A stretch of 64,000 nucleotides of DNA, taken from IMG/VR virus record IMGVR_UViG_3300042891_002161; one strand, 5' to 3'. The notes under the pieces are model-generated. The model was not told where the DNA came from and searched no databases. It saw only the letters and a program-made list of their open reading frames with translations. Position numbers and translations under genes: made by a program. Numbering within the stretch: the stretch's first letter is position 1; the number at the start of each line of letters is the position of its first letter. The stretch is from a virus (lineage: Duplodnaviria > Heunggongvirae > Uroviricota > Caudoviricetes). Positions 4,515 through 21,800 of this stretch are shown here, in pieces.

Positions 4515-4602
4515 GCGGAGAGTGAGGGATTCGAACCCTCGGTACCCTTTCAGGTACACACGCTTTCCAAGCGTGCTCCATAAACCACTCGGACAACTCT
4601 CC
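4515..4602 (-). tRNA. tRNA-Ser (anticodon GGA), type II
   Basis: Acceptor GGAGAGT/ACTCTCC. Anticodon arm CACGC-TTGGAAA-GCGTG. Long variable arm. T-arm GAGGGTTCGAATCCCTC. Discriminator G. CCA is not encoded. Confidence 0.8.
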
Positions 4603-4612
4603 AGTTATCTTT

Positions 4613-4699
4613 GCGGAGAGCAGAGTATTCGAAACTCACACATTTTATTGTGCCACTCGCTTAGCAGGCGGTGCTAGTACCCTGACTAGTTTACTCTCC
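4613..4699 (-). tRNA. type II tRNA, Ser-like (possible anticodon GCU; imperfect anticodon stem)
   Basis: Same GGAGAGT acceptor, GTTCGAATACTC T-arm and roughly 87-nt length. The candidate anticodon loop CTGCTAA has only a 3-bp stem in my fold, so it could be a pseudo-tRNA. Confidence 0.5.
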
Positions 4700-4704
4700 A
4701 TTAG

Positions 4705-4787
4705 CGGAAGAAGAGGGAATCGAACCCCCAAAGCCTTACGACCCAGCCGCTTTCAAGGCGGTGTCCTCGTCCATTCGGACTCCTTCC
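4705..4787 (-). tRNA. tRNA-Ser (anticodon UGA), type II
   Basis: Acceptor GGAAGGA/TTCTTCC. Anticodon loop CTTGAAA. T-arm GGGGGTTCGATTCCCTC. Discriminator G. Confidence 0.65.
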
Positions 4788-4792
4788 GGTTG

Positions 4793-4876
4793 CGGAGAGG
4801 TGAGGTATCGATCCCCATACCTTTCGGTACGACTAGTTTTCAAGACTAGCTTTAGCGCCAGCTAAATTACCTCTCC
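4793..4876 (-). tRNA. type II tRNA, Ser-like (anticodon loop CTTGAAA = UGA), with an unusual T-loop
   Basis: Acceptor GGAGAGG/CCTCTCC. Anticodon arm CTAGT-CTTGAAA-ACTAG. Discriminator G. The T-loop ATCGATA is non-canonical. The 5' half overlaps the HNH remnant frame. Confidence 0.55.
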
Positions 4877-5069
4877 TTTCATTAAAGTGATGTATTCTAT
4901 GACAATTTGAACATAAAACAATACACTTTTCTATTTCTTCTAATATCCTATCTTTGTTACAAGATTTTATAATATTTGATACTTCTGATTCTTTTTTACC
5001 AATATGATGAAAATCTAAAGCGGCTGGATGTGAAAATCCACATTCTTGGCATTTTAGAGAACTTTGAAA
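4833..5069 (-). pseudogene. HNH endonuclease domain remnant (no start codon; 3' end reads into a tRNA)
   Basis: The frame translates FQSSLKCQECGFSHPAALDFHHIGKKESEVSNIIKSCNKDRILEEIEKCIVLCSNCHRIHHFNERRGNLAGAK..., a full C-x2-C...HH...N...C-x2-C-H-x2-H HNH core. An in-frame TAA lies immediately upstream and there is no ATG. It lies between tRNA-Arg and the tRNA-Ser block. Confidence 0.55.
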
Positions 5070-5093
5070 TTAAAAATATGTTCGTATCACTTG

Positions 5094-5166
5094 TAGTCCC
5101 AGAAGGATTCGAACCTTCATTTTTGGTTTCGTAGACCAATGTCCTGTCCAGTTGAACGATGGAACC
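5094..5166 (-). tRNA. tRNA-Arg (anticodon ACG)
   Basis: Acceptor GGTTCCA/TGGGACT (with G-U pairs). Anticodon arm TTGGT-CTACGAA-ACCAA. T-arm GAAGGTTCGAATCCTTC. Discriminator A. Confidence 0.75.
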
Positions 5167-5170
5167 ATAT

Positions 5171-5215
5171 AAAAACAAAAAACCCTTCAAACTTGAGTTC
5201 GAAGGGTTTCTTTAA
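5171..5215. terminator. rho-independent, bidirectional-type hairpin
   Basis: A-run, then the inverted repeat ACCCTTCaaacttgagttcGAAGGGT, then TTTCTTT. It lies downstream of the minus-strand gene at 5370-5972. Confidence 0.6.
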
Positions 5216-5263
5216 TATCTTTTTTACTTGACTATTATGAACACGATCGAACCTCACTCATTT

Positions 5264-5291
5264 TTGACGAGCGACTTGACGATTTTGACGA
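5264..5291. promoter_or_regulatory. three direct TTGACGA repeats in the 5' region of the minus-strand gene cluster
   Basis: TTGACGA at 5264-5270, 5276-5282 and 5285-5291, within about 100 nt downstream of the stop of gene 5370-5972. Confidence 0.25.
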
Positions 5292-5369
5292 TGTGTAAAT
5301 AATTGTTTTCATAATCTTATTGTATATATTACAAATGTAATCTTTGTTTTTGTTATTTCCTAATTTTTT

Positions 5370-5972
5370 TTATACTAAATCTTCAGCATCAGCTGGAAGA
5401 GTTATTCTAACAAGTTGTCTTTTAACATCTTCTTCTAATGGTAAAGACTCGTGAATGAATGTTGAATTACCCCAATATAAAGTATTACTCTTTAAGTTGA
5501 AGTTTTCCATTTTAGAAAGATCTAAATGTGAACAATCTCCACCTTGGTTTGGTTGACCTTCATAATCACCATTCCAACCTTTACAAGCTTCATAAGAAGA
5601 AACAATTAACATTCCACCTTTTTCAGAACAATATTGTTCTTCGTGTTTATCTCTTGGTAAAAATCTACCATCTTCTCCAGTTAACCAGCCGCTTCCGCCG
5701 CCACCCCATCCAAATAGATAGTTTCCATCAGTATGTGGTCCACCTCTTCTATGAGATTCACCTTTACTAACAATTTTTTCATCAATTGTTAAATATGCTT
5801 TACCTGTTTTCTTAGGTGAGCAATCAACAATCTCTTTAAGAACAGATTCCCATCTTTCATAACCTATTGGTAAAGTAGGATTCTCCATATCGAATTCGTG
5901 CATATAAACTCTATCACCTCTGTATTCTGGAAGAGATATCGGTTTAATCATTTTTGATTTACTTTTTAACAT
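5370..5972 (-). CDS. hypothetical protein, possible 2OG-Fe(II) oxygenase-like fold
   Basis: Candidate HxD (GGPHTDGNY) and a distal His (NSTFIHESLP) about 95 residues apart. The assignment is weak. Confidence 0.3.
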   Translation of the reverse strand: MLKSKSKMIKPISLPEYRGDRVYMHEFDMENPTLPIGYERWESVLKEIVDCSPKKTGKAYLTIDEKIVSKGESHRRGGPHTDGNYLFGWGGGGSGWLTGEDGRFLPRDKHEEQYCSEKGGMLIVSSYEACKGWNGDYEGQPNQGGDCSHLDLSKMENFNLKSNTLYWGNSTFIHESLPLEEDVKRQLVRITLPADAEDLV

Positions 5973-5988
5973 AATGTTATTTAATTTT

Positions 5989-6171
5989 TTAGTAGTTATC
6001 GTAGAAGTAATCTTTAAGATCTTTTTCTCCGTAACCTTTTTCTCTTAGGACTTTATACATTTCATAAGATGATTTGTTCTTTTTATTAGTATCAATAAAA
6101 TCTTCAATTTCATCTTTTTTAGAAACTTTTTCGCCTTTTACCTTTTCATTAAATTTTTGTAAATGTTTCAT
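5989..6171 (-). CDS. small Lys/Glu-rich hypothetical protein
   Basis: 60-aa ORF with a TAATATATAC-type motif upstream on the minus strand. Confidence 0.4.
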   Translation of the reverse strand: MKHLQKFNEKVKGEKVSKKDEIEDFIDTNKKNKSSYEMYKVLREKGYGEKDLKDYFYDNY

Positions 6172-6221
6172 TTTTTAATCTTTGATTTTATGTATATATT
6201 AAAATCAATATTTATATTTTG

Positions 6222-6350
6222 TGGGGATGGTTGGATTCGAACCAACGACCTTATAATTTCAAAATATACGAAGTAACTCTCTCAATCAACACTCTTTACG
6301 AGGTAAAATTTCAAAAGAGATAGTTTTCTCTACCACTGAGCTACATCCCC
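6222..6350 (-). tRNA. tRNA-like gene with a ~55-nt insertion (intron-like or disrupted; isotype unresolved)
   Basis: The 5' end GGGGATGTAGCTCAGTGGTAGAG and the 3' end AGGTCGTTGGTTCGAATCCAACCATCCCCA are canonical. The middle holds about 55 extra nt with a duplicated TTTTGAAATT segment (candidate anticodon loop: GAA or UGA). Confidence 0.45.
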
Positions 6351-6413
6351 AAATGAATTTATTACGTTACTTGAAAAGTGCCAAGTCGATAAAATTCTAA
6401 ACGGTCTCATAAC

Positions 6414-6558
6414 TAGGGAGAGAGGCAGGGCTCGAACCTGCGACCACGGATTTAAAAGATCGAAGTAACTCTTAACATCACTACTAATATTGATAATCAA
6501 TATCAGAGAATCCTTGTCAGAGTAATTGCGTGCTCTACCAACTGAGCTACTCTCTCCA
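6414..6558 (-). tRNA. tRNA-like gene with a ~70-nt structured insertion (His-like G-1/C73 architecture; isotype unresolved)
   Basis: The 5' end G-GAGAGAG-TA-GCTCAGTTGGTAGAGC and the 3' end GTGGTCGCAGGTTCGAGCCCTGC-CTCTCTC-C are canonical. The central insertion contains nested perfect hairpins (ATATTGAT/ATCAATAT; ACTCT/AGAGT). Confidence 0.45.
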
Positions 6559-6567
6559 TATTATTTG

Positions 6568-6650
6568 TGATTCCGGTGGGACTCGAACCCACGGTGGACT
6601 TTCATCGACAGATTAAGAGTCTGTTGCAATCGCCGCTATGCGACGGAATC
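6568..6650 (-). tRNA. atypical tRNA: Lys-type anticodon loop (CUU) on a type II-like scaffold
   Basis: Acceptor GATTCCG/CGGAATC. Anticodon arm ACAGA-CTCTTAA-TCTGT. D-loop contains AGCGGC. About 15 nt lie between the anticodon stem and the T-stem. T-arm GTGGGTTCGAGTCCCAC. Discriminator A. Confidence 0.5.
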
Positions 6651-6657
6651 ATTTTTG

Positions 6658-6740
6658 TGCGTCTGGTGGGACTCGAACCCACGGTTGAAATTAATCGACT
6701 GGTTAAAAGCCAGCTGCTATAGCCACTAAGCGACAGACGC
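6658..6740 (-). tRNA. atypical tRNA: anticodon UUU on a type II-like scaffold (paralogue of 6568 and 6750)
   Basis: Acceptor GCGTCTG/CAGACGC. Anticodon arm GCTGG-CTTTTAA-CCAGT. A 15-nt variable region. Identical T-arm GTGGGTTCGAGTCCCAC. Discriminator A. Confidence 0.5.
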
Positions 6741-6749
6741 AATACTTAG

Positions 6750-6834
6750 TGATCCTGGTGGGACTCGAACCCACGGTTGAGAATTAACTCTACTGGTTAA
6801 AAGCCAGTTGCTATAGCCGCTAAGCGACAGGATC
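6750..6834 (-). tRNA. atypical tRNA: anticodon UUU on a type II-like scaffold
   Basis: Acceptor GATCCTG/CAGGATC. Anticodon arm ACTGG-CTTTTAA-CCAGT. Variable region AGAGTTAATTCTCAACC forms a GAG/CTC hairpin. Same T-arm as 6568 and 6658. Confidence 0.5.
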
Positions 6835-6847
6835 ATTTGTATTTTAG

Positions 6848-6920
6848 TGATCCCGGTGGGGTTTGAACCCACAACCTTCCGATTAAAAGTCGGAAGCTCC
6901 ACCAATTGAGCTACGGAATC
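6848..6920 (-). tRNA. tRNA-Lys (anticodon UUU), canonical type I
   Basis: GATTCCG-TA-GCTCAATTGGTGGAGC-T-TCCGA-CTTTTAA-TCGGA-AGGTT-GTGGGTTCAAACCCCAC-CGGGATC-A. Confidence 0.85.
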
Positions 6921-6934
6921 ATTGTCTTTTTGAG

Positions 6935-6960
6935 GGCAACGATCCGTATGAATCGTTGCC
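6935..6960. other. 9-bp stem hairpin in a tRNA spacer (possible processing or termination signal)
   Basis: GGCAACGAT-ccgtatga-ATCGTTGCC. Confidence 0.3.
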
Positions 6961-7007
6961 TAGCGTTTATATTTCAATTTTGTTTTCATTTCTTTTAATT
7001 TATTTTA

Positions 7008-7079
7008 GCACGCCATTGAGGAATTGAACCCCACCGTCGAGGTTTTGGAGACCTGACCGACACCTTGTCTGTATGACGT
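7008..7079 (-). tRNA. tRNA-Trp (anticodon CCA)
   Basis: Acceptor ACGTCAT/ATGGCGT. Anticodon arm AGGT-CTCCAAA-ACCT. T-arm TGGGGTTCAATTCCTCA. Discriminator G. Confidence 0.65.
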
Positions 7080-7091
7080 ATTTTATTTTAG

Positions 7092-7173
7092 CACAGGTAA
7101 AGAGACTCGAACTCTTAGCCACTCTTACGAATTACCGGGTTGGAGCCGGCTGGTCACACCAATGAGTACCTGT
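7092..7173 (-). tRNA. atypical tRNA with candidate anticodon loop CTCCAAC (CCA) and an extended (~17-nt) variable region
   Basis: Acceptor ACAGGTA/TACCTGT is perfect. Anticodon arm GCCGG-CTCCAAC-CCGGT. T-arm AAGAGTTCGAGTCTCTT. The identity is uncertain. Confidence 0.4.
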
Positions 7174-7179
7174 ATGTTG

Positions 7180-7251
7180 TGGAGACTGACGGAATCGAAC
7201 CGACCTCTTCCGGGCTTCAACCGGACGCTAAACCAACTTAGCTAAGTCTCC
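7180..7251 (-). tRNA. tRNA-Phe (anticodon GAA)
   Basis: Acceptor GGAGACT/AGTCTCC. Anticodon arm TCCGG-TTGAAGC-CCGGA. T-loop TTCGATT. Discriminator A. Confidence 0.75.
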
Positions 7252-7254
7252 TTT

Positions 7255-7331
7255 TGGGTGAATGACGGGTTACGATCCCGCTACCTCTGGTACCACAAAC
7301 CAGCGCTCTACCGATTGAGCTACATTCACCA
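7255..7331 (-). tRNA. tRNA-His (anticodon GUG) with encoded G-1 and 3' CCA
   Basis: G-GTGAATG-TA-GCTCAATCGGTAGAGC-G-CTGGT-TTGTGGT-ACCAG-AGGTA-GCGGGATCGTAACCCGT-CATTCAC-C-CA. Confidence 0.85.
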
Positions 7332-7484
7332 TAATACCCCACTTCATCAGATTACCGGACTGACTGCCATATGGGAGTGGGGGTCTCCTGTTTATCTCAG
7401 GACTCCGTGGAACCTCCCGGTAACGATCCGGGCTCCCTGGATTTTCAGTCCAGTGCTTTCACCTGATTAGCTTAGGTTCCAATT
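7332..7484 (-). ncRNA. unassigned GC-rich (about 50% GC) structured spacer between the two His tRNAs
   Basis: Local GC is far above the 28-30% background. Hairpins include CCCGG-atcgtta-CCGGG and TCCTG-agataaa-CAGGA, and a CTGATGA element is present. No tRNA cloverleaf could be drawn. Confidence 0.3.
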
Positions 7485-7572
7485 TGGGTGTCGTACGGGA
7501 TTTGAACCCGTCCCCTAACTTTCACAGAGTTAGATGCTCGTCCGAAGACTCACCGCTGACAATAACGACACC
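7485..7572 (-). tRNA. second tRNA-His-like gene (GUG) with a ~12-nt hairpin insertion in the D region
   Basis: G-GTGTCGT acceptor pairing with ACGACAC, C73 and CA. Anticodon arm TAACT-CTGTGAA-AGTTA. T-arm ACGGGTTCAAATCCCGT. An extra GTC-TTCG-GAC tetraloop hairpin sits in the D region. Confidence 0.5.
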
Positions 7573-8627: not shown

Positions 8628-9167
8628 ATGGATTTAAATAATTATTTAAGAAAAGACTATGCTACCCCATCCACATATTATGGATATTCAAGTGACTCAA
8701 ATGCTGCTTCTACAGATTTTAATTGGTCTATTAGAAAGGTAACAACATCTGGTAATGTTGAAACTGTTACTTGGACTAATGGTGATCCTGGAAAACCATT
8801 TGCTAAATGGAATGATAGAGTTAACTCATTCGCAACACCAACTGGTTCATTAGGTCTTACATGTAGTAAAGGAACTCAAATAGGAAATAATGTACCATTA
8901 AATATCACTTGGAACCAATTATCTGGTGTTAATAGATATCAAGTAGTTGTTTCAAAAAATAGTATAGTTTACTCAGATTTGGGATCTCAAATTTATTATA
9001 ATCCAAACACAAATCAAATTACTAAAGAGATAGTAAATGATGGTATTTATATTTATAATTTTGCTGAGTCAACTAATGGTCTTTCACCAAGTAATATTTA
9101 CTCTATTACAGTAACAGCTGTTAATGTTGCTGGATCTTCAGCATCAACTGTTACTATTACTACTTAA
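8628..9167 (+). CDS. Ig/FN3-like beta-sandwich protein (possible capsid decoration or adhesin)
   Basis: C-terminal YSITVTAVNVAGSSASTVTITT, Thr/Ser-rich strands and a WTNGDPG motif. A TAATATATAC motif lies about 21 nt upstream. Confidence 0.45.
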   Translation: MDLNNYLRKDYATPSTYYGYSSDSNAASTDFNWSIRKVTTSGNVETVTWTNGDPGKPFAKWNDRVNSFATPTGSLGLTCSKGTQIGNNVPLNITWNQLSGVNRYQVVVSKNSIVYSDLGSQIYYNPNTNQITKEIVNDGIYIYNFAESTNGLSPSNIYSITVTAVNVAGSSASTVTITT

Positions 9168-9564
9168 TAACTTCTTTGATAGATTCAGAAACCATTTTCT
9201 TATCAGCCGGAAGAGTTGCAAATTCTTTCATAATAGCACCGATTTGAGTGATGCCAGAATTTACAAGTTCTGTTACTTTAGCAGTAACTTCTTCTTTAGA
9301 CATTTGTGTTGGAAGGTAAACTTCAACAATAGCCAATTCAAGTTTAGATTTTTCGTCATTGCTCAAAGTGATAGTTTCTTTTAAAGACTTAACAGTTTTT
9401 GTTAAAATCTTCATTACCTCAGCATCTGAAAGATTATCAGAACCAATATTCTTTTCTACGGTTTGAATTTCTCCTTTAACAACAGATAGTATGCTTTTTG
9501 CTACCATGTTTTTAGACTTAAATGCTGTCATAAAGTCTGCGTTGATTTTTTCTTTCAGTGTCAT
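9160..9564 (-). CDS. GatB/YqeY domain protein
   Basis: Full-length match of the pattern to bacterial YqeY (DFMTAFKSKN...LSVVKGEIQTVEKN...LSDAEV..IL.K.VKSLKET...EL.IVE.YLP.QMS.EEV...V.ELV...G....IG.IMK). Confidence 0.7.
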   Translation of the reverse strand: MTLKEKINADFMTAFKSKNMVAKSILSVVKGEIQTVEKNIGSDNLSDAEVMKILTKTVKSLKETITLSNDEKSKLELAIVEVYLPTQMSKEEVTAKVTELVNSGITQIGAIMKEFATLPADKKMVSESIKEVIK

Positions 9565-9597
9565 ATTATTTCTATTTACTTATTTACAATTAAAAAA

Positions 9598-9736
9598 GAA
9601 GATGTTTGGAACGCCTGTCAAGTATGGTCGGAATCCGAGAACCTTTATCTTGACTTTTAGTGACCTCATCACTTAGGATTACCTTTTAATATGCTTTCGC
9701 CTCGGTTGAGCAGTGTTACCATTCTGCTCGTTTTAA
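9598..9736 (+). ncRNA. candidate small structured RNA ending in an intrinsic terminator
   Basis: Nested inverted repeats (GTCAAG...CTTGAC enclosing TCGGAaTCCGA; AGTGA...TCACT), then GAGCAG-tgttaccatt-CTGCTC followed by GTTTTAATCTTCTTT. No plus-strand CDS lies here. Confidence 0.3.
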
Positions 9737-10048
9737 TCTTCTTTGAGTTGGGTTTAATCATTAGTTATTTGAGACATCTATCACCAACACGACTTTGACA
9801 TCTACACCCTTACTATTTATCATATAGTTATATTACAAGGTAGTTCACTGTGTTTAACAAGGGTGTTAACTTATTTAACAGCTACTTACTACCATAATTT
9901 CGTTAAGACTCACACCGTTTTATCATATTATTAATGTGAAATCTTTCAATCTGTTGATTTCTCAACTTTTGCCTTAACGACTCTTTGTTTGTTATACAAA
10001 TGTATAAAGAAAGTTTTAATTTACCAAATAAATTTTAATATATAGAGT

Positions 10049-11713
10049 ATGTCAGACATGAAATATTTAATGTTATTTGAAGCTTTTGAATCCAATGCTT
10101 TATCAAAAATGATGACCTTTTTAGGTAACAAAGTAGATAATAATTCTAAAGGAAGATTCCAAGATAAATTAAAAAGATTAATTAGTAATTTTGATATTCC
10201 TATTGATAAAATAGTTGATAAAGATGTTAAGTATCTTAACAGAAATCAGGCTCTTAAATTAAAGAATGAAGAAAGATCTGATAGTGGTCTTTATTGTTTG
10301 AAATTTTGGTTTTCAATGGATGAGGGGTTTTTAGGATTTACAGGTACCGGAAATAGAACCATGGATTTTAATGAGTATCTTGAAGGTAATAGGAGAAGAA
10401 GAAGATCATCGGAAAAAAATGAACCTTTTAGTAATAAAGAATTAAATTATATTAAAAATGATTTAGATATTAAAACCGGAAAACTTACACCACTTAAAGA
10501 CTATGAGGATTTAAGACACGGTCAATTAGTTGTTGGTTTTTTTTCAGATGATGAAGATGATGAGTCAAGAATAGGATTGTCTAAAATTTGGAGAGATGGT
10601 AGTAGAATATTTGCTATACAAGATGTTGCTTCTGGTGGAACACCTGATTATGATGTAGATGGTGAATCATGGAGTGATTGGAGAAGTGGTAATCAATTTA
10701 GGTATTCTTGGTCATTGGACACTGTTGATTCGCCTGGTAATGATCATCACAAATTACATATTTATACACCATCAGATGAGCCTTTAAGAATAGAAGGTGT
10801 TAAAAAAGAAGAAGAAGAAGAAGAAGTTAAAGTATCAAGTCCATTTGACTTTAATCTACCATTAAATAGTAGTTATGAATTAAGAGAGTGGGGTGAAACA
10901 TCTTACTCAATAGATGAGTATAAAATGGTTGAAAATTCCGACTTTGCTATTGTTTTAATGATTGATGATATACTTAAATCTGTTAAAAAGAAAGTTACAC
11001 AACTTAGAACAGATAGATTAGAATTAAGACAAGGAGCTAGTAAACTAATGTCAGATGACCAAATTAAAACGGCTAATATTGAAAGATATTTAACTATTTT
11101 AATTAGTAAAATGGGTATTAAAAGTGATGTTAAAGAATTAAAAAATCTTCAAAAGTTAGTTATAAAGTCTATATGTAATGATTTTGCTTTTATTTCTATT
11201 TATAAAGGTAGACCAGGATTTGATGGCTTAAATAGTATAACCAGAGATATCTATAATATGATGAAAGTTGAAGATAAGAGTGATAAAGAATACTACTTAA
11301 AATCTATAATTAATAGATTCAAGTCATTAAATTCATCTTCAGAAGATTATATTAGAAGTTATATGCAGGGTCTTAAAATTATTAATGATAGTAATATAGA
11401 GCCAATTAAAGAACTATTCAAAATACTTATGAATATTGGTAAGAAAATAAAAGATTATTTACTATCTCAAAATATTCAAACGCTTGAAGATTTAAGAATG
11501 GTTATGGCTAAGTTAAAGTCTATTAATATTTTAGTAGGTGATGATGAATTTTCATTTAATGGATATACACGTTCTATTTTAAATGAGCTTCATTATGATA
11601 ATGATGTTAAATATTACATGAATGAATATAATGAAAGAAGAGAGCCACAAATTTTAGAAGATATTAAAAAGGCTAAACATATTGAAAGATACATTGACTC
11701 CTTATTGAGATAA
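10049..11713 (+). CDS. hypothetical protein with a CTS-like N-terminus, a poly-Arg run and a poly-Glu run
   Basis: 554 aa. N-terminus MSDMKYLMLFEAFESN. Contains RRRRR and EEEEEE runs. Confidence 0.6.
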   Translation: MSDMKYLMLFEAFESNALSKMMTFLGNKVDNNSKGRFQDKLKRLISNFDIPIDKIVDKDVKYLNRNQALKLKNEERSDSGLYCLKFWFSMDEGFLGFTGTGNRTMDFNEYLEGNRRRRRSSEKNEPFSNKELNYIKNDLDIKTGKLTPLKDYEDLRHGQLVVGFFSDDEDDESRIGLSKIWRDGSRIFAIQDVASGGTPDYDVDGESWSDWRSGNQFRYSWSLDTVDSPGNDHHKLHIYTPSDEPLRIEGVKKEEEEEEVKVSSPFDFNLPLNSSYELREWGETSYSIDEYKMVENSDFAIVLMIDDILKSVKKKVTQLRTDRLELRQGASKLMSDDQIKTANIERYLTILISKMGIKSDVKELKNLQKLVIKSICNDFAFISIYKGRPGFDGLNSITRDIYNMMKVEDKSDKEYYLKSIINRFKSLNSSSEDYIRSYMQGLKIINDSNIEPIKELFKILMNIGKKIKDYLLSQNIQTLEDLRMVMAKLKSINILVGDDEFSFNGYTRSILNELHYDNDVKYYMNEYNERREPQILEDIKKAKHIERYIDSLLR

Positions 11714-12064
11714 GGAATCAATCTCTTTTTTACGTTCATCAATCTCATATATCAAAGCCAAACAATCACTTTTTAACTTTTTTAATTCTTTTGCTTCTGT
11801 TATACTAACCTTTTTTAACTCAGATTCAATCGTATCTATTTCAGTTTGTATAGATTTTCCTATTTTATCTAATTCTAATTTTATAGTAGATTGTATATCA
11901 GGTATTAATGATTTGTAATAAGGATTATTATAAATAACTTCTTTATACTGATAAGGATCAAATTTTTTTACCAGTTCAATAAGATGTTTCAGTATTTCTT
12001 CTTCAGTTAGAGATCTTTTGAGATTCTCTAATAACGAATTGATATCTTTAGGTTTGCGAGCCAT
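11702..12064 (-). CDS. hypothetical coiled-coil protein
   Basis: The track start at 12151 overlaps smpB. The likely start is MARKPKD at 12064, directly after the smpB stop. Confidence 0.5.
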   Translation of the reverse strand: MARKPKDINSLLENLKRSLTEEEILKHLIELVKKFDPYQYKEVIYNNPYYKSLIPDIQSTIKLELDKIGKSIQTEIDTIESELKKVSITEAKELKKLKSDCLALIYEIDERKKEIDSLSQ

Positions 12065-12065
12065 T

Positions 12066-12500
12066 TTACATACTACGACGGATCTCACGATCCATATCTC
12101 TTTTTTTGATTGTTTCTCTTTTATCGTATAACTTTTTCCCTTTAACAACACCCAATTTAACTTTAACTCTGTTATGTGCTGTAAATATTTCTAACGGAAC
12201 CATAGTTGTTCCTTTATCTTGAAGTAATTTTTCAATTCTATCAATTTCTTTCCGATTAAGAAGTAATTTCTTATCTCTATTTTCATCATGTGGTTGAAAT
12301 GCGTGACTTTGTGAGTATCTAGCAACTTTCATGTTTTTAATCCAAATTTCACCTTTTTGTATGTAAGCAAAACAATCAGCAATAGTTACATTACCTTTTC
12401 TAATAGATTTAACCTCGCTACCCAATAGCATTACACCTGCGTCAAAGTCTTCCAACACAAAGTATTCATAATACGCTTTTCTATTAGTTGTTATTTTCAT
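12066..12500 (-). CDS. smpB: SsrA-binding protein SmpB
   Basis: Alignable along its length to bacterial SmpB (KAYYEYFVLEDFDAGVMLLGSEVKSIR.G...IADCFA...GE.W..N..V.....S.....D..R.KKLLLNRKEID..EK....KG.T.VPL.......VKV.L.V.KGKK.YDKRETIKKRD..REI.R). Confidence 0.85.
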   Translation of the reverse strand: MKITTNRKAYYEYFVLEDFDAGVMLLGSEVKSIRKGNVTIADCFAYIQKGEIWIKNMKVARYSQSHAFQPHDENRDKKLLLNRKEIDRIEKLLQDKGTTMVPLEIFTAHNRVKVKLGVVKGKKLYDKRETIKKRDMDREIRRSM

Positions 12501-13083
12501 AGTTACAAATATAGTTATAATCTTTTAATTTATCAAATGATACTAGTATATCATCTCCATTCTCACCGAATCTATTCTTTATTACTTTCATTGATTCATC
12601 TTGCATTATAATAGCCACATCACTTGCATAAATTGGCTTACTGCCACCTTTGAAATTTGTAATACTAGCATCATCAACACTCTTTCCACTACTATATAGT
12701 GATGTTAATATTAAAAGTTTATAAGGTGGTGTTTGAGGGTAAACACCAGAATAATTTGAGTATAAATCTTCTCTGATTTTACCAATAATATTTCCTATTT
12801 GATTTTGTCTACCTCCCAAATCATCTGAATTAAATCTGATATCATTTAAATCTAAAACAAGATACTCTGGATTGTTTACAGTGTTACCAGTTTCTAAAAT
12901 TGATTGAAGTTTCAAATCTCTTAAAAAAGATTTAAAAGAAAAAGACGAGTCTATTTCAGGAACCACCAGGTGAGGTAGTTTAGAAATAATCTCGTCTTTG
13001 AGTCTTTCCTGCTTGAATCTATACCCCAAAAGAGATATATCAGATTTTTGTATTAATTCAAAAAAATATTCAATGTTTTTCAT
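12484..13083 (-). CDS. hypothetical protein
   Basis: 199-aa ORF. Confidence 0.5.
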   Translation of the reverse strand: MKNIEYFFELIQKSDISLLGYRFKQERLKDEIISKLPHLVVPEIDSSFSFKSFLRDLKLQSILETGNTVNNPEYLVLDLNDIRFNSDDLGGRQNQIGNIIGKIREDLYSNYSGVYPQTPPYKLLILTSLYSSGKSVDDASITNFKGGSKPIYASDVAIIMQDESMKVIKNRFGENGDDILVSFDKLKDYNYICNYENNN

Positions 13084-13094
13084 TTGACTTTATT

Positions 13095-13463
13095 TTAAAA
13101 GTCAGTGTCAGTGTTGTCAATAGAATCAACTGATTCAGATGGTGCTAATAAACCATCAATAATTTCAGTTAATTTTTTCTTAGTTACAGCCCCGTGTGTT
13201 GATTCAACAATTTGACCATCTTTATAAAAGAAGATTGTTGGAATATTTCTAACACCAAGTTCCATGACTTTATCTCTGTTTGCATCAGCATCACATTTAC
13301 CAACTTTAATTTGATCAACATAATCTGAAGAGATTTGATCCACAATAGGAGAAATCATTTTACAAGGACCACACCAAGGTGCCCAAATGTCAACAAGTAC
13401 TATTCCTTCTTTAACGAAATCATCATAGTTCTCACCGTTTAATTCTGTTATATATGCTACCAT
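13095..13463 (-). CDS. thioredoxin
   Basis: Active site WAPWCGPCK with a thioredoxin-fold context (VLVDIWA...C.M..P). Confidence 0.85.
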   Translation of the reverse strand: MVAYITELNGENYDDFVKEGIVLVDIWAPWCGPCKMISPIVDQISSDYVDQIKVGKCDADANRDKVMELGVRNIPTIFFYKDGQIVESTHGAVTKKKLTEIIDGLLAPSESVDSIDNTDTDF

Positions 13464-13507: not shown

Positions 13508-14818
13508 TTAAAATGACCAGATATCATTATTCTTCTTCTCAATAACCTCTTCTATATTTAGTATTTTATTTACTTTTCCTCTTGTATCATTAACAATCTT
13601 TTTTCTAACAGAAAGTTCTAATAATAACATTGTTTGTTCATCTAAAATAATATTTTTATCAACCTTAACACTTTCTAAAATAGAAATCGCTACAATTGGA
13701 TCTTCTTTGAATGTATCTAAGAATTTTTTAATGACATCAATTTGCTCAGAAATTTTTAAACCTTTTAAGTTCTCAATAGAATCTGGCGCATATTTAACAA
13801 ATCTTTGCAACAATTCAAAATCATCATTACTTACTTCTCTATCAATATAATGAACATCATTAAAGAAATAATAAAGTTTAGACCACATATCTTTTAGACT
13901 TTGGTCTTTACCATAAATATTTCTCATATAGAATAAGAAGTCAGTTGACTTAAATATTTTATTAAGATTACTATCTTCAAATATTTGTGGAAGATTGCTA
14001 TAAACTATTTTTTCAAAATCGTCAGTTAATGGAATTTCTGTTACTTCTGTTTTAACTTCTCTAGAAACTAAATAGTAAAGTTCAACTTTTTCACCTGTCT
14101 TTGTTAAGACATACTCTTCCGCTTCTAAATCTCTTGACATTTGAAAATATGGTGATAATAAATCCTTATTATCTTTACACATTTCTAAATATCTCTCTCT
14201 GAATCTTAACTTTATTCTATCAATGAATCTATAGGTTAGAGCGTATTGAATAATTTTAAATTCAAATTCATCAAGCTTGGCTTTTAATTCTTTAGATTTT
14301 TTAGCTATACGAACTGCTGTATGAGAAGGTGTCATTAGGTTTGAAACTTTTAATTCACCTGTTTTTAAGAATTCTTCAAATTCGTAAGTCCAGTATATTT
14401 TATCATTATCAATATCATAGCCAATTCTAGTTGCATTAATATCAAATGATTTAATGATTAAAGAAGGGTCTGATGTGTTTGATTTATACTTAATAGTATT
14501 AAACATATCGTCTCTCTCAGACTCAACTATAGAATAGAAATCTTTGGTATAATTATTAAAATTCATACCATTGTAGTCTTCATAATACTTTGTTTCTTTT
14601 TCTTGATAATTAAAAAGAGACTTCTTATTAGTGTCTATTTCTTTTTCAATACCATCAAAAACAAAGATGTCAATATCATTGACCACAGCTTTGTTGCCTG
14701 ATACCAATTCCCAAACAATGTTTGCGATGGCACCTCCAGCGACAAATCCGTGTAGGGGCAAGCCCCACTCAGACTTGATTCTATCTATAGCCTGTCTTCC
14801 TAGAGATTCTATATTCAT
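13508..14818 (-). CDS. nucleotidyltransferase-superfamily (Pol-beta-like) protein, possibly tRNA-NT/poly(A)-polymerase-head-like
   Basis: The N-terminal FVAGGAIANIVWELVSGNKAVVNDIDIFVF fits the hG[GS]-x(9-18)-DhD NTase signature and resembles the class II CCA-enzyme GGAVRD...DIDI. Confidence 0.4.
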   Translation of the reverse strand: MNIESLGRQAIDRIKSEWGLPLHGFVAGGAIANIVWELVSGNKAVVNDIDIFVFDGIEKEIDTNKKSLFNYQEKETKYYEDYNGMNFNNYTKDFYSIVESERDDMFNTIKYKSNTSDPSLIIKSFDINATRIGYDIDNDKIYWTYEFEEFLKTGELKVSNLMTPSHTAVRIAKKSKELKAKLDEFEFKIIQYALTYRFIDRIKLRFRERYLEMCKDNKDLLSPYFQMSRDLEAEEYVLTKTGEKVELYYLVSREVKTEVTEIPLTDDFEKIVYSNLPQIFEDSNLNKIFKSTDFLFYMRNIYGKDQSLKDMWSKLYYFFNDVHYIDREVSNDDFELLQRFVKYAPDSIENLKGLKISEQIDVIKKFLDTFKEDPIVAISILESVKVDKNIILDEQTMLLLELSVRKKIVNDTRGKVNKILNIEEVIEKKNNDIWSF

Positions 14819-14831
14819 AAATAAATTTTAA

Positions 14832-15602
14832 TTACATTAACATTTCATCAATAGCGTCAAACTCTTTCTTAGTTTCACGAACTAAGATAGCTCTTCCGTT
14901 ACGAATTTGTGATTTAACTGTTGATAGGTTTAGGTTAAGTTTATCAGAGATATCTTTATAAGACATTCTTTTTAACTCACGCATTTCAATTACATCACGA
15001 TAAGGATTCTTCAAGTTCTGAATATGTTTCTTCATAATGTCAGCTTTCTTAGCATGAATCTCATGCATGAAATTGTCACCTTCGTCTTCTTGAATGAAGT
15101 CTTTCATTGTTGTGCCTTCATCATCAAACTCAATATCTAATGACATTGTTTTCTTTTCGTTTTTAAGGTCTTGTAATGCTAGATTTTTTGCTATTGTAAA
15201 TAGCCAGGTAGAGAATTGAGATTTTTCTTTTTCATATTTCTCAATCTTCTCAAAAGCCGCCATGAATGAATCTGTTGAGATATCTTCTGCCTTTTGAGGG
15301 TCATTAGTAATTTTAGCTGTAAAATATACTAGTTTTGGGTAATACTTTGTGTACAATGAAGAGAAGTCTTTACCCGTTCTTTCTCTAAAGATTTTTTCTT
15401 GTTCACTGAATAAAATCGCTTTTGATTCCATAATTTGCCGTTTCTTTTTTTGTTGAGGAGTCATTAATTCATCCTCAATATTGCCTTCTTTTGCCGTTAA
15501 TGGTGATTGCTCACCCGAATAATTTATATCATATATATCAGCAAAAGTTGTGTCTGTTTCAAAGTTTTTTTCACTTTGATTTTCTAGTTTTATTTCTATC
15601 AT
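14832..15602 (-). CDS. sigma-70 family (ECF-like) RNA polymerase sigma factor
   Basis: Region 2-like FMAAFEKIEKYEKEKSQFSTWLFTIAKNLALQDLK. Region 4.2-like helix-turn-helix MRELKRMSYKDISDKLNLNLSTVKSQIRNGRAILV. Confidence 0.75.
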   Translation of the reverse strand: MIEIKLENQSEKNFETDTTFADIYDINYSGEQSPLTAKEGNIEDELMTPQQKKKRQIMESKAILFSEQEKIFRERTGKDFSSLYTKYYPKLVYFTAKITNDPQKAEDISTDSFMAAFEKIEKYEKEKSQFSTWLFTIAKNLALQDLKNEKKTMSLDIEFDDEGTTMKDFIQEDEGDNFMHEIHAKKADIMKKHIQNLKNPYRDVIEMRELKRMSYKDISDKLNLNLSTVKSQIRNGRAILVRETKKEFDAIDEMLM

Positions 15603-16327: not shown

Positions 16328-18157
16328 TTATTTTAACATATTTTCTAATTGTTCAACTGTAATCACTTCAACACCTAATTCAATAGCTTTCTTCTCTTTA
16401 GAAGAACCACTACCAATTGACTTCATTACAAGATGAGTTGTTGTTTTTGATACACCAGAACCAATCTTTCCACCACGAGATTCAATATCAGATTCTAAAT
16501 CTGGTCTACGAACTCCGGTAAAGACAAATGATTTACCCTCAAGGTCTGTGCCAACTTTAACAGCCTCAACTTTTTCAGTAATAGTGACAGGTAGATCTTT
16601 AATGAAGTCAAAAAAAATGTCATATGAGTCAATGTATGATTTAGCAGATACTTCAGCAAATCCTTCAATTGACATTACTTGGTCAACAGTTGGTTTAGTT
16701 TTGAAATTTTCTAAAAGAACTAATTTCTTAGAGCCTAATCCTTTGAAGATACCGGTAGCGTGTTGTAGTTTAGACAACTGAACATTACTAACAGACTTTT
16801 GAATAGATTTATAAACGATGTCAGCTTTTCTCTTACCAAAACGGTCAATCTTCTCTAAGTCAGAAGTTGTAAGAGTAAGAACATCTTTGATTGTTTTATA
16901 ACCAGCATCCCATAATTGAGTAATAACTCCTTCTGACACATTGTCTGCTTCTAAGATTTCAAAGAAAGCAACAATCTTTTTCAACTTCTGATCATCAGTT
17001 TCAGTTAAAGTGATTAACTCAATACCCGCATCATTCCAATCTACTTCAACACCTTCAATTGTAGGTTGAACAAATTCAACTGGAGTGATAACATCAGCAA
17101 TGATTGGAATAACCATTCCGGAACGTTTTACGACTACTTTGGCACCTACACCAAGTCCTAAGTCTTTTACAAATCTGGCGTTATTACCAGTCACGTTAGA
17201 CACTGTTACACCGTCAAGTTTAACTGGGTTAATATGTAGAATAGGTTTTAGTAAACCTTGTTTGGAAATATTCCAAGAGATTCCAATAACATCGGTTTCA
17301 GCAGATTGCTCAAAACTTGGATGTTTGAAGGCACGAGCCCATACTGGATTGTTTGAAGAAGTTTCACGACCTAACTTATCTTGAAGTTTTAGGTCATTTA
17401 ATTCAATAATCAAACCGTCAATTTCATATTCAGTAGAGAACTTATGAAATAAGTCAATAAGTAAATCTTCTGATAAATCAGATAATTGACAAATATGATA
17501 TTGTACTTTTGATACTTGCCCTTTGTTAAGTTCGTTAATAACTTCTTGTTTAGTAGAAAAGTTTCTTTTACAAACAGCACCGTATTTAATATACTGGCAA
17601 TCTTTTAGAGAATCACTTACAGTTTTAGAGTTTAACAAACCAGCAACTAAGTTACGAGGATTTGCGAAATCAGCTGAGAATTTATCAATGAATACTTGTT
17701 TAGGTATCATTACTTCACCGTAAGTAAAACTAAATGGATCTTCTTCTAAATTTAAGTGATTTTGAATTAAAGCGTAATGTTCATTTGATTTTTGACCAAA
17801 TTCTCCATCACCACGAGTCCAAGCTTCAGATGTAGTCTCGTTTACGCATAGTGACAAGCCATCAAATTTTGGTGTGATAATAACATATTCAGATTTTGAA
17901 ATACCTTTTAGACGAGACCAATCATCAACATCATTCATTGACTTAATTTTGTTCATTGAAGCCATTTCAATAGGAAGACGAGATTTGCGTGTTTCATCAG
18001 CAATTTCAACACCTACTTTAGTAAGTAATTCATCATCTGGTGATAATAAAGACAGTTCTTCAACTAGTTGGTCATACTTAGCATCAGATATGATTGGTTG
18101 TCCCAACCTATAGGCATCATTTGCCTTAATAATTTGCTCTTTTAATTGTTCAATCAT
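16328..18157 (-). CDS. ligA: NAD-dependent DNA ligase (LigA)
   Basis: N-terminal Ia domain YRLGQPIISDAKYDQL. Adenylation motif I ITPKFDGLSL (KxDG). OB fold. C-terminal BRCT domain (GKSFVFTGV...LGVEVIT). Confidence 0.85.
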   Translation of the reverse strand: MIEQLKEQIIKANDAYRLGQPIISDAKYDQLVEELSLLSPDDELLTKVGVEIADETRKSRLPIEMASMNKIKSMNDVDDWSRLKGISKSEYVIITPKFDGLSLCVNETTSEAWTRGDGEFGQKSNEHYALIQNHLNLEEDPFSFTYGEVMIPKQVFIDKFSADFANPRNLVAGLLNSKTVSDSLKDCQYIKYGAVCKRNFSTKQEVINELNKGQVSKVQYHICQLSDLSEDLLIDLFHKFSTEYEIDGLIIELNDLKLQDKLGRETSSNNPVWARAFKHPSFEQSAETDVIGISWNISKQGLLKPILHINPVKLDGVTVSNVTGNNARFVKDLGLGVGAKVVVKRSGMVIPIIADVITPVEFVQPTIEGVEVDWNDAGIELITLTETDDQKLKKIVAFFEILEADNVSEGVITQLWDAGYKTIKDVLTLTTSDLEKIDRFGKRKADIVYKSIQKSVSNVQLSKLQHATGIFKGLGSKKLVLLENFKTKPTVDQVMSIEGFAEVSAKSYIDSYDIFFDFIKDLPVTITEKVEAVKVGTDLEGKSFVFTGVRRPDLESDIESRGGKIGSGVSKTTTHLVMKSIGSGSSKEKKAIELGVEVITVEQLENMLK

Positions 18158-18821: not shown

Positions 18822-21800
18822 ATGCCAATTCAAAGCTCATTTCCGACAGTCGCTGACCAGGTGATTTCTTCTAATAAGAATATTATAGAAATATTAGGTC
18901 AGATTAATAGTTTAACAACTACACAAGATCAATCCGTGAATATTAAAATTTATGATGAAAATGGAATTTTAAGAACTTTTGCAGTTCCTTCATTTACATC
19001 ATTAAAAAATGATATAGACAGATTGAATAATAATATTAATTCTCTTTATAGTATTGATGCAAATGGTTCAATGATTTCAACATCAAGTCAAAATAAATAC
19101 AAAAAGATAATTACTGTAGATTTAAATAGAGAACCAAATGCAGTCGGAACACTTGGAGCTCTTACTAAATTTAAAGCTGTTAATAACTGGTTTTTTGATG
19201 GACTTATGAGTCCTATCATTTCTGTTGAATTAGATTTAAGTGGTAAAGTAGAGAATAATGTAAGAAAAGTTTTAAGTAGAAGATATATTGTTGATTTTGC
19301 TTCTGATGGTTCAGGTAATTTAACAGCATTAGGTCAGTCAGCTCTTAATAGTTTCAATACACAATTCAGAGGAAATTCTTCAATATTAGTAACAGATTTT
19401 GAAAACTGGCATAATACAACACCAGGTGTTCTTTATCCTACAAATCCTCAATTTGATGAGCAAGTTTTTGATTTAGATCCACATGATTTATTATATGATG
19501 GTCAATTTAATGTGAGAGAAATACAACAAGATAAAATTAATAAAAAACTTTGGTATGTTTTAGATACATTAACCTATTTAGTTAGATCAAATAATGAAAC
19601 AGCTCAATTATCTATTGGTAGTGAAGTTATTATCAATTCAATTCAAACATCAACAAGATATAAAGTAATTGAAGTATCAACTGCTGAATCTAGTCCAAGA
19701 GTTAGATTTGAAAGAGTTGAAGGTATGGAAGCTATTCCAGTTGGAATTGGAACTCTTAAAATATATTCACCAGTTATTTACAATAAGAAAGTGAAAATAA
19801 GTGTTGGATATAACGAAAGAAATGTAATCTTTATTAAGCCTATAAATGCTGATCTTAATTTATTATCAAGAAATTGGAGTTTAGGTACTGGATTGTGGAC
19901 TAATGATTTAATATTAGACTCAACAGCTCAACAAAATGGTCTTACTATGGAACAGTTCTATACAGATTATGTATATGACTATGGAACAGTATTAAAAGAT
20001 TTAGTTGCTAAAAAAACACCTAACTCTTTAGCGGGTACACCGGCTTCACCAACATTAAATGCGGCTAACTTCAAAGTTGTTCAAATTAATAAACATTTAA
20101 CAGATACACCTGATTCAAATTTACTTAAACAAAAGCATAATTATCAATTAACATTAAACTCTGAAATTCAACAAATACAAGATTCTATTGTAAGTAAAAA
20201 TTCTAAATCTAAATTTGTTAGATTCAAATCAGAATCTGATAAAAAGCAAGTTAATCTTGAGATTGAAGAACTTTCAAGAAAAAAAGATAGTAAATCTAAA
20301 TTACTTAGTACTACAACTCAAGAGATTATTCAATTGTCTAATAGTCCTCAAACAAAGGTAAAACCTAAGTTTAGAATTAGAGGATTCTGGACTGTACCTT
20401 CAGCTGTTATAACAAGAGGTACAAAACCTCAAGAAGTTGTTCAGTTTAGAGTTCAATATAGATATTTAAGTAAAGATGGCTCAGAAGCACCTGTTGAAAC
20501 ATTTGCAATTGATGCTACTCAGAAAAAAGGAGCATTCTCAAATTGGAATGAATTTAAAACAGATGCAAGAAAAAGAACTTATAATAAAGGAACAGGTGAA
20601 TATACTTGGGAAATTGAAGATGTTGAAAAAGCAGATACACCAAATATCAATCAACTGGATTTAGATATTCAAGCTAATGAAAAAATTGAAGTTAGAATTA
20701 AATCTATATCTGAAGTGGGTTGGCCCGAATCTCCAGTAGAATCAGATTGGTCTGAAATTTTATCTATTGAGTTTCCAGACGATTTGAATAACGTATTAAA
20801 TGAAAATGACTTTATATTAAAAGCGGCTACTTCAGAAGATTTGAAAATTAAAATGAATCAAGAGTTATCATCTAAAGGTTTAGATGACCACTTAGCTGAT
20901 ACTATTGTTGTTAATAATGTTACTTTTCATCACGAGGCTACTAAGATTTTATCAGGAATGAAAGATGAGAATGGAGTTGCTTTAGACTTATTTACTTATT
21001 TAAAATCTCTACAAGAGAGAATTACTTCACTTGAAGAAAGAATACAAAGAGTTAAAGGTGAACTTGAAATTGTTATTCTTAGAAATAATCAAGAGTTTGT
21101 AGTTGCTAATGGTAGTGAGACTACATTTAATATTGAGTGCGAGGATTATCTTGATAACTATACAGGATCTGGTATACCAACTGGTAGAGTTTATGCCAAT
21201 AATATTTATGTAATTAAAGACTTTGTTGTTAAAGTTAGAAATAAATCAACAAGTTCTGCATTAGGTTTACTTTCTAATAGAACTTATTTACAAAATCCAA
21301 ACGTTTATAACACAGGAGTTCCTCAAACATTCTGGGTTAATGATCAAAATGAGTTAATAACATCTGATATCTCAGGACAAACAAGAACTCAATTAAATAA
21401 TCAATATTTATGGACTGTAAATTATGATTCAGTTTTAGAAACATCAGTTACTAAATTAACAGAGAATATAGGAAATACATTCAATACAAACGCATCAAAC
21501 TCTATCACCAGAGTTTTATCATCTAATGAATATAATGTCGGTTTTAATGAAACATCTATACTTTCATTTGTTAGTAATAATAAATCATTATTAGATCCAT
21601 CTAAATGGATAGATACAAATATTTCAGTTTCTTCTACAACTAAACTATTAACAACTATACACCCTGTTGTTCCTAACTTAGAAACAATTGTTGAAACAAA
21701 CTCTGAAAAAGTAAAAACAGTAAATACTGGTGATGCTAATTCTACTGTTATTCCAATTAATATTTATTTTAAAATGAACGCATTGGATAATAATCAACCT

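Follow-up and report, generated by a model that had tools for sequence, protein, structure and literature searches.

Huge phages with a conserved SmpB and no detectable tmRNA gene: possible use of the host tmRNA

The window, by which we mean the whole 64-kb stretch of DNA analyzed here, has a GC content of about 29% and contains many large ORFs without a Pfam family. Its smpB gene lies in a block of four genes on the same strand, Trx - ORF199 - SmpB - ORF120, whose order is conserved according to synteny in related loci (Table 1). The 3' end of ORF199 overlaps the start of smpB by 17 nt and, given this overlap, the two genes are probably co-transcribed or translationally coupled. ORF199 also adjoins smpB in the related loci L098, L102, L303, and L304. 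On the other side, ORF120 starts 2 nt past the smpB stop codon, and a 120-aa gene directly follows smpB in locus L305 as well. Beyond the thioredoxin gene, at 13508-14818 on the minus strand, lies a 436-aa protein for which hmmscan at E<=0.001 returned no family; the precomputed annotation of an identical or near-identical protein lists PF26128 (Gad2, a phage anti-Gabija protein).

Table 1. Genes and RNA features of the window that are discussed in the text.
Feature	Coordinates	Strand	Basis or remark
tRNA array: Phe, His, Phe, Lys x4, Arg, Ser, and weaker or insert-bearing tRNA-like matches	4515-7480	-	ARAGORN, Rfam
tRNA-Phe(GAA), canonical	7407-7480	-	ARAGORN, Rfam; 52.7 bits; 100% identical to the copy in L001
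yqeY-like gene, GatB/YqeY domain	9160-9564	-	PF09424, E 5.5e-16
Structured RNA, class unassigned, about 325 nt, pseudoknotted	about 9592-9917	-	Covariation, conservation; immediately upstream of yqeY
ORF120, function unknown, 120 aa, downstream neighbor of smpB	11702-12064	-	No Pfam match
smpB, full-length SmpB (SsrA-binding protein), 144 aa, ATG start	12066-12500	-	Pfam, NCBIfam, PDB matches, phrog_6791
ORF199, function unknown, 199 aa, upstream neighbor of smpB	12484-13083	-	No Pfam match
Thioredoxin (Trx)	13095-13463	-	PF00085, E 3e-29
Sigma-70 factor	14832-15602	-	Domain search
NAD-dependent DNA ligase (LigA)	16328-18157	-	Domain search
S1 RNA-binding-domain protein, 365 aa	27300-28397	+	PF00575, E 3.7e-21
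Ribosomal protein bS21 homolog, 62 aa	54311-54499	-	PF01165, E 4.7e-11

A preliminary description of this DNA, based on the sequence alone, had proposed a full-length SmpB homolog in a phage that also encodes bS21, an S1-domain protein, YqeY, and a large tRNA set, with no recognizable tmRNA in the window. Profile searches bear out the first of these claims. The ORF matched the Pfam SmpB family PF01668 with 181.2 bits (E 1.4e-53; cut-off 27 bits) over profile positions 1-141 of 143, and it exceeded the cut-offs of both NCBIfam equivalogs, scoring 181.5 bits against 130 for NF003843 and 174.4 bits against 119.1 for TIGR00086. In a phmmer search against the PDB, residues 3-143 were matched by the solved SmpB chains 5zey_C, 7ljp, 1p6v, 1j1h/4v8q, and 7acj at E-values from 2e-36 (5zey_C) to 1e-25, with 5zey, 7ljp, and 1p6v at 1e-33 or below. 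The phage protein is thus predicted to be a homolog of the solved SmpB fold in its core as well as its tail. It also belongs to a phage protein family of the PHROGs collection, phrog_6791 (E 8e-48). Judged from these matches, the assignment of the ORF as SmpB is beyond reasonable doubt.

To place the window among known phages, we compared its SmpB and the surrounding DNA with deposited genomes. A megablast search of deposited phages with the smpB region gave no match, and relatives appeared only at the protein level. The nearest deposited records in a tblastn search with SmpB were two closed genomes, LR756502.1 (642,428 bp, 68% identity) and LR745206.1 (634,780 bp, 64%). Blastn revealed that positions 400-22800 of the window are collinear with LR756502.1 and with relatives in IMG/VR, which are contigs of 75-483 kb whose SmpBs are 79-99% identical to the one studied here. 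The exact SmpB protein is encoded on the JGI contig Ga0620986_00085 (L303; IMG 3300071516; 816,658 bp), which is collinear with the window at 704339-724773 and, read as +/-10 kb around genes, is 92-99% (about 96%) identical to it in DNA sequence. Two short contigs are 100% identical to the window. The four largest genomes described by Al-Shayeb et al. (2020; PMC7162821) measure 634, 636, 642, and 735 kb, with predicted hosts among the Bacteroidetes. If Ga0620986_00085 is one non-concatenated genome, it is larger than the 735-kb phage record of that study. Collinearity, protein similarity, and the lack of cellular hallmark RNAs in LR756502.1 place the window in the huge-phage lineage represented by LR745206.1 and LR756502.1. 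Compared with these two genomes, which have a similarly low GC content, the same SmpB family at 64-68% identity, and the same gene order (Trx - SmpB - ... - YqeY - tRNA Phe-His-Phe-Lys array), the window belongs to a different, closer-knit lineage, as indicated by the IMG/VR SmpBs at 79-99% and the 817-kb contig at 96% nucleotide identity.

Several observations bear on the viral nature of this DNA. A 1055-aa ORF of the window matched phrog_29329 (E 7e-94). At 873-2531 on the plus strand lies a 552-aa protein that consists mostly of collagen-like G-[ST]-S-G-T-S-G repeats and has tail-fiber PHROG matches; the long ORFs 1478-2110 and 1591-2349, in other frames or on the other strand of this gene, were discarded as repeat artefacts. 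An Rfam search over all 642 kb of LR756502.1 detected no rRNA, RNase P, or SRP RNA, which argues that the closed relative is not a cell, and found tRNAs, one GOLLD RNA, and a small motif. The GOLLD RNA (RF02032, 275 bits) is full-length, lies at about 434,685-435,091 (L012:38685-39091), and is directly followed by an odd tRNA-like gene that ARAGORN reports as 'tRNA-???'; GOLLD had no match in the window. A cellular origin of the contig was rejected: the records nearest to it are closed phage genomes and contigs of IMG/VR, and it carries PHROG matches and the tail-fiber-like protein. By gene content and relatives, the window and its relatives are therefore viral and not cellular in origin.

To determine whether the phage protein retains the residues on which SmpB function depends, we mapped it by alignment to E. 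coli numbering and took the roles of the residues from PMC4151336. The C-terminal tail, the part that the preliminary description had singled out, proved conserved. It reads G121-K-K-L-Y125-D-K-R128, followed by K132, R134, R138, and R142, and these motif residues are kept in 88-100% of 119 phage-clade sequences. E. coli G132-K133-K134 corresponds to phage G121-K122-K123, and the aromatic position His136 to phage Tyr125; the aromatic tail residue stacks on G530 and is His136 in E. coli and Tyr in Thermus (PMC4151336). The D137-K138-R139 motif, which is essential for accommodation (PMC4151336), is present as D126-K127-R128, and the basic tail residues K143, R145, and R153 are present as K132, R134, and R142. 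E. coli Trp147 is replaced by Met136, at a position that is variable in bacteria too, where Ala is the commonest residue (27%). The last residue of the phage protein corresponds to E. coli Met155, which is also the endpoint of the family profiles. Of the 39 columns with at least 80% conservation among 79 bacterial SmpBs, the window protein matches 33 exactly, and the six that differ comprise the exchanges E->D, T->S, I->V, and R->K and two loop positions.

The conservation of these residues is matched by the substitution pattern of the gene. Among five phage smpB copies, dN/dS ranged from 0.07 to 0.15 (Nei-Gojobori, with dS saturated), and a value of about 0.1 points to strong purifying selection. 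More than 100 metagenomic homologs are 64-96% identical to the phage SmpB, whereas the best cellular SmpBs, taken with one genome per species, reach only 41-51% and come from such scattered groups as Treponema, Chloroflexota, Chitinophagaceae, and Clostridia. This distribution argues that smpB is an old, selected component of the phage lineage and not a recently acquired host fragment. Since SmpB is universal in bacteria and the window also holds bS21, an S1 protein, a sigma-70 factor, LigA, and tRNAs, the gene could in principle be a functionless passenger recently captured from a host, or the contig could be cellular. We give this explanation an extremely small probability and regard it as largely refuted. 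A recent host origin was rejected on the grounds that no cellular SmpB exceeds 51% identity and that dN/dS is about 0.1; moreover, the gene keeps its position even between phages with SmpBs of only 55-68% identity, and the evidence on the nearest records, the tail-fiber-like protein, the PHROG matches, and the RNA content of the closed relative speaks equally against a cellular contig.

The other translation genes named in the preliminary description, bS21, the S1-domain protein, YqeY, and the tRNA set, were all confirmed by Pfam, ARAGORN, and Rfam. The tRNA array contains 9-11 tRNA genes by ARAGORN and Rfam, with a count of 9 from ARAGORN. Three IMG/VR contigs (L001-L003) and LR756502.1 have an array of the same make-up at a distance of about 5 kb from smpB. 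The preliminary description had seen no tRNA-like domain in a GC-rich spacer at 7332-7484; this is contradicted by the canonical tRNA-Phe(GAA) within it, and the correction leaves unchanged the conclusion that the window has no recognizable tmRNA. Within and next to the array, over-long or weak tRNA or tRNA-like genes occur on the minus strand at 6222-6350, 6567-6834, 4705-4787, 7092-7174, and 7487-7572. Their Rfam matches span 83-129 nt, and the tRNA-Lys genes measure 84-86 nt, which suggests inserts, introns, or degenerate copies within the array. In the relative L001, one tRNA was called with a 4-base anticodon.

No tmRNA was found in the window by ARAGORN, by Rfam at gathering scores, or by nhmmer with a profile of 18 bacterial tmRNAs, and an Rfam search at E<=10 with lax filters returned nothing resembling any tmRNA family. 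The absence of a recognizable tmRNA from the window, as the preliminary description had it, thus holds. As a positive control, 81 bacterial loci were scanned with ARAGORN, which detected 18 tmRNAs next to smpB, E. coli ssrA among them. The search was extended to the closed relatives, in both of which smpB is placed as in the window, about 5-9 kb from a tRNA Phe/His/Lys array; because smpB and the array occupy matching positions, the comparison is like for like. ARAGORN, run in circular mode with the tmRNA search switched on, reported 46 tRNAs and no tmRNA in LR756502.1 (closed, 642 kb), and neither nhmmer nor Rfam at gathering scores over the whole genome in 13 pieces revealed a tmRNA family. 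LR745206.1 (closed, 635 kb) contains 59 tRNAs and no tmRNA according to ARAGORN, and gave no nhmmer match. In the window and the closed relatives, the nhmmer profile yielded only T-arm-like noise in tRNAs. The +/-10 kb around smpB in L001-L003 likewise contained no tmRNA, nor did ARAGORN find one in 72 further related loci, which amount to 421 kb and 201 tRNAs.

Records of other phages were searched as well. When a Flavobacteriales tmRNA was compared with all deposited phages by blastn, the matches were confined to a crAss-like phage and a fragment, with no huge phage among them. In the crAss-like phage cr114_1 (NC_055897.1), positions 19530-19567 are annotated as 'transfer-messenger RNA, SsrA', and only the 3' 38 nt matched the Flavobacteriales tmRNA; this could be either a genuine phage tmRNA or an att-site fragment. 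Among 200 of the 257 supplementary GenBank files of Al-Shayeb et al. (2020), we found no 'tmRNA' feature.

A complete trans-translation system, with SmpB and a tmRNA encoded together, was thus not found in the window, the two closed relatives, or the 421 kb of related loci. The preliminary description had concluded that the partner RNA is either elsewhere in the phage genome or host-derived. The negative searches in two closed relatives, together with the positive ARAGORN control, favor the host-derived option, and the other half of the alternative has lost ground. A phage tmRNA located outside the window, be it canonical or too divergent for the tools, is in our view unlikely. What speaks for it is that the window represents 64 kb of a genome that probably measures 0.6-0.8 Mb, that further tRNA clusters of the relatives lie past the left edge of the window, and that some huge phages (PMC7162821) and many marine phages (PMC9004378) do encode tmRNA. 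Against this stand the closed collinear relatives, with their 46 and 59 tRNAs and no tmRNA by ARAGORN and nhmmer (and, for LR756502.1, by Rfam), and the 421 kb of other related loci. Detection depended on three tools, namely ARAGORN, Rfam with its gathering thresholds, and the sequence profile, and a tmRNA that has diverged very far could be missed by each of them.

Between yqeY and a divergent 554-aa ORF, about 2.1 kb downstream of smpB, lies an intergenic region that is about 95-100% identical between relatives, compared to 72-80% for the flanking genes. Using invariant 19-22-mers as probes, we collected 57 distinct homologs of this region, 67-97% identical, from lake and marine metagenomes and from huge-phage contigs, including L098-L169. 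The element occurs once in each closed relative, at 371875-372050 in LR756502.1 and at 335577-335906 in LR745206.1. The pattern of G-U and A-C pairs favors the minus strand, on which yqeY, smpB, and the tRNAs also lie. Covariation supports a 5' hairpin, formed by GUAGU/ACUAC and GCUG/CAGU around an AAGUA/GAAC internal loop that, by its sequence, resembles a loop-E motif; a pseudoknot, CCCUU/AAGGG; and further helices, namely a variable helix, GAGCAG/CUGCUC, and GUCAAG/CUUGAC. A covarying helix AAAGAAGAU/AUCUUCUUU (alternatively AAAGAGAG/CUCUCUUU or UAUGAAGA/UCUUCAUA) at 9736-9744/9595-9603 closes the multi-helix 3' domain and is followed by a U-run. In this structure 97.7% of cells pair, with 199 compensatory cells compared to 49 +/- 7 in shuffles, and pairing drops to 32-47% once the partners are shifted against each other. 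Folding 9598-9736 as a single sequence gave no significant result (z -1.3 and -0.5), and the structure emerged from the comparative analysis only. The preliminary description had treated 9598-9736 as a structured element without a tRNA-like domain; the lack of such a domain stands, whereas according to the covariation the element is just the 3' domain of the larger RNA.

The size and position of this RNA raise the question of whether it could be a non-canonical partner that replaces tmRNA, an explanation to which we assign a very slim chance. The RNA is real, strongly conserved, pseudoknotted, and of tmRNA-like size; it is encoded on the same strand as smpB and is syntenic with it not only in the window and both closed relatives but also in 15 of the 20 loci with enough flanking sequence, where smpB lies 2.1-3.5 kb upstream; and it has no Rfam match at E<=10 and no ARAGORN match. 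However, the covariation scan revealed no terminal helix joining the 5' and 3' ends as an acceptor stem would, no G-U-bearing acceptor stem, and no T-arm, and no conserved tag ORF or reading frame was found, the candidate region being a variable hairpin. The RNA thus has neither the tRNA-like domain with a 3' CCA nor the internal tag ORF of a tmRNA, and tmRNA identity was rejected for want of an acceptor helix, a T-arm, and a tag frame. A T-box was also considered and rejected. The RNA is invariably accompanied by yqeY, the gene directly downstream of it on the same strand in 66 of 66 loci, and five divergent loci carry the RNA and yqeY with no smpB within at least 3.6 kb. The RNA is therefore more readily read as a leader of yqeY or as an ncRNA transcribed together with it and, lacking a tRNA-like domain and a tag ORF, is probably not the partner of SmpB. 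In a wider form of this explanation, the phage SmpB would use a non-canonical RNA, for which the 325-nt RNA is the best physical candidate, or would act on ribosomes without tmRNA. We consider this highly unlikely; were it true, it would amount to a viral re-invention of ribosome rescue.

Taken together, these data lead us to favor, with somewhat better than even confidence, a model in which the SmpB of these huge phages works with the tmRNA of the host and maintains ribosome rescue and tmRNA stability during a long infection. According to this model, a clade of low-GC phages with huge genomes of about 0.6-0.8 Mb would long have kept a functional, canonical SmpB in a putative 'translation island' with the order Trx - ORF199 - SmpB - ORF120 ... 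structured RNA - YqeY - tRNA arrays, with bS21 and the S1 protein located elsewhere. As the phage would encode no tmRNA of its own, its SmpB would bind the tRNA-like domain of host tmRNA during infection and then, together with EF-Tu, be brought to ribosomes that have stalled on truncated or cleaved mRNAs, where the C-terminal tail of the phage SmpB would probe the empty mRNA channel. Trans-translation would thereby be kept running, and tmRNA kept stable, amid the shut-down of host expression and the degradation of mRNA, and the ribosome pool would be preserved for the long infection cycle. The sequences establish what the protein is, that its motifs are intact, that it is under purifying selection, that its synteny is conserved, and that no tmRNA is detectable in the window and the two closed relatives; we infer that the phage SmpB binds and uses host tmRNA and that the phage profits from it. 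The model fits the other translation-maintenance genes on the island.

Alternatively, the phage SmpB might be directed against the host, sequestering tmRNA or occupying stalled ribosomes and thereby preventing tagging and proteolysis or dampening a host response linked to tmRNA, or it might have a role independent of tmRNA. No cognate RNA gene was found in the window or the closed relatives, the phage SmpB is at most 51% identical to cellular SmpBs and has Met at the position of E. coli Trp147, and tmRNA can tell phages about the physiological state of the host (Al-Shayeb et al., PMC7162821), all of which would suit such a function. A decoy, however, would be expected to lose or alter its tail, whereas all motifs for EF-Tu activation and accommodation are kept under purifying selection, and Trp147 is unconserved among bacteria too. 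We therefore rate an anti-host or tmRNA-independent role as improbable and retain cooperation with host tmRNA as the preferred reading.

Compared with the bacterial SmpB-tmRNA system of trans-translation (E. coli smpB-ssrA; structures 7acj and 4v8q), the phage protein shares the SmpB core and the tail motifs and is predicted to act in the same way on stalled ribosomes. It differs in that no linked or genome-encoded ssrA was found for the phage and in its identity of at most 51% to cellular SmpBs; relative to E. coli SmpB, its tail lacks the last five, non-conserved residues. SmpB in phages as such has already been reported (Al-Shayeb et al., 2020, PMC7162821; phrog_6791), and the concept is published: Al-Shayeb et al. 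(2020; Nature 578:425) explicitly count both tmRNAs and SmpB among the translation genes of huge phages and describe tmRNAs in some of them. An 'SsrA-binding protein' CDS is annotated in at least eight of their GenBank files, including those of LR756502.1 and LR745206.1, and we found no statement in that paper (PMC7162821) on whether the SmpB-encoding genomes lack tmRNA. The Lak megaphages of Prevotella (MK250015-MK250029) and the 735-kb LR756501/LR756503 also encode SmpB, at about 41% identity to the one described here. The reverse arrangement, tmRNA without SmpB, is known from the marine phage Melnitz, HTVC008M-like pelagiphages, and cyanophages (PMC9004378). Both groups carry one half of ribosome rescue, presumably completed by the other half from the host, and they are mirror images of each other, with the protein half in the present clade and the RNA half in Melnitz-type phages.

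What is new here is that the closed genomes of this clade contain no detectable tmRNA, that the SmpB motifs are intact under strong selection, and that the nearby RNA is a separate element tied to yqeY. This RNA, a more novel by-product of the analysis than the phage SmpB itself, is a good candidate for a new RNA family. As far as the sequences indicate, an entire clade of the largest phages known has retained, under selection, just the protein half of ribosome rescue and so complements the known phages that carry tmRNA only. This would imply that these phages rely on the tmRNA of their hosts and actively manage ribosome stalling during infection.
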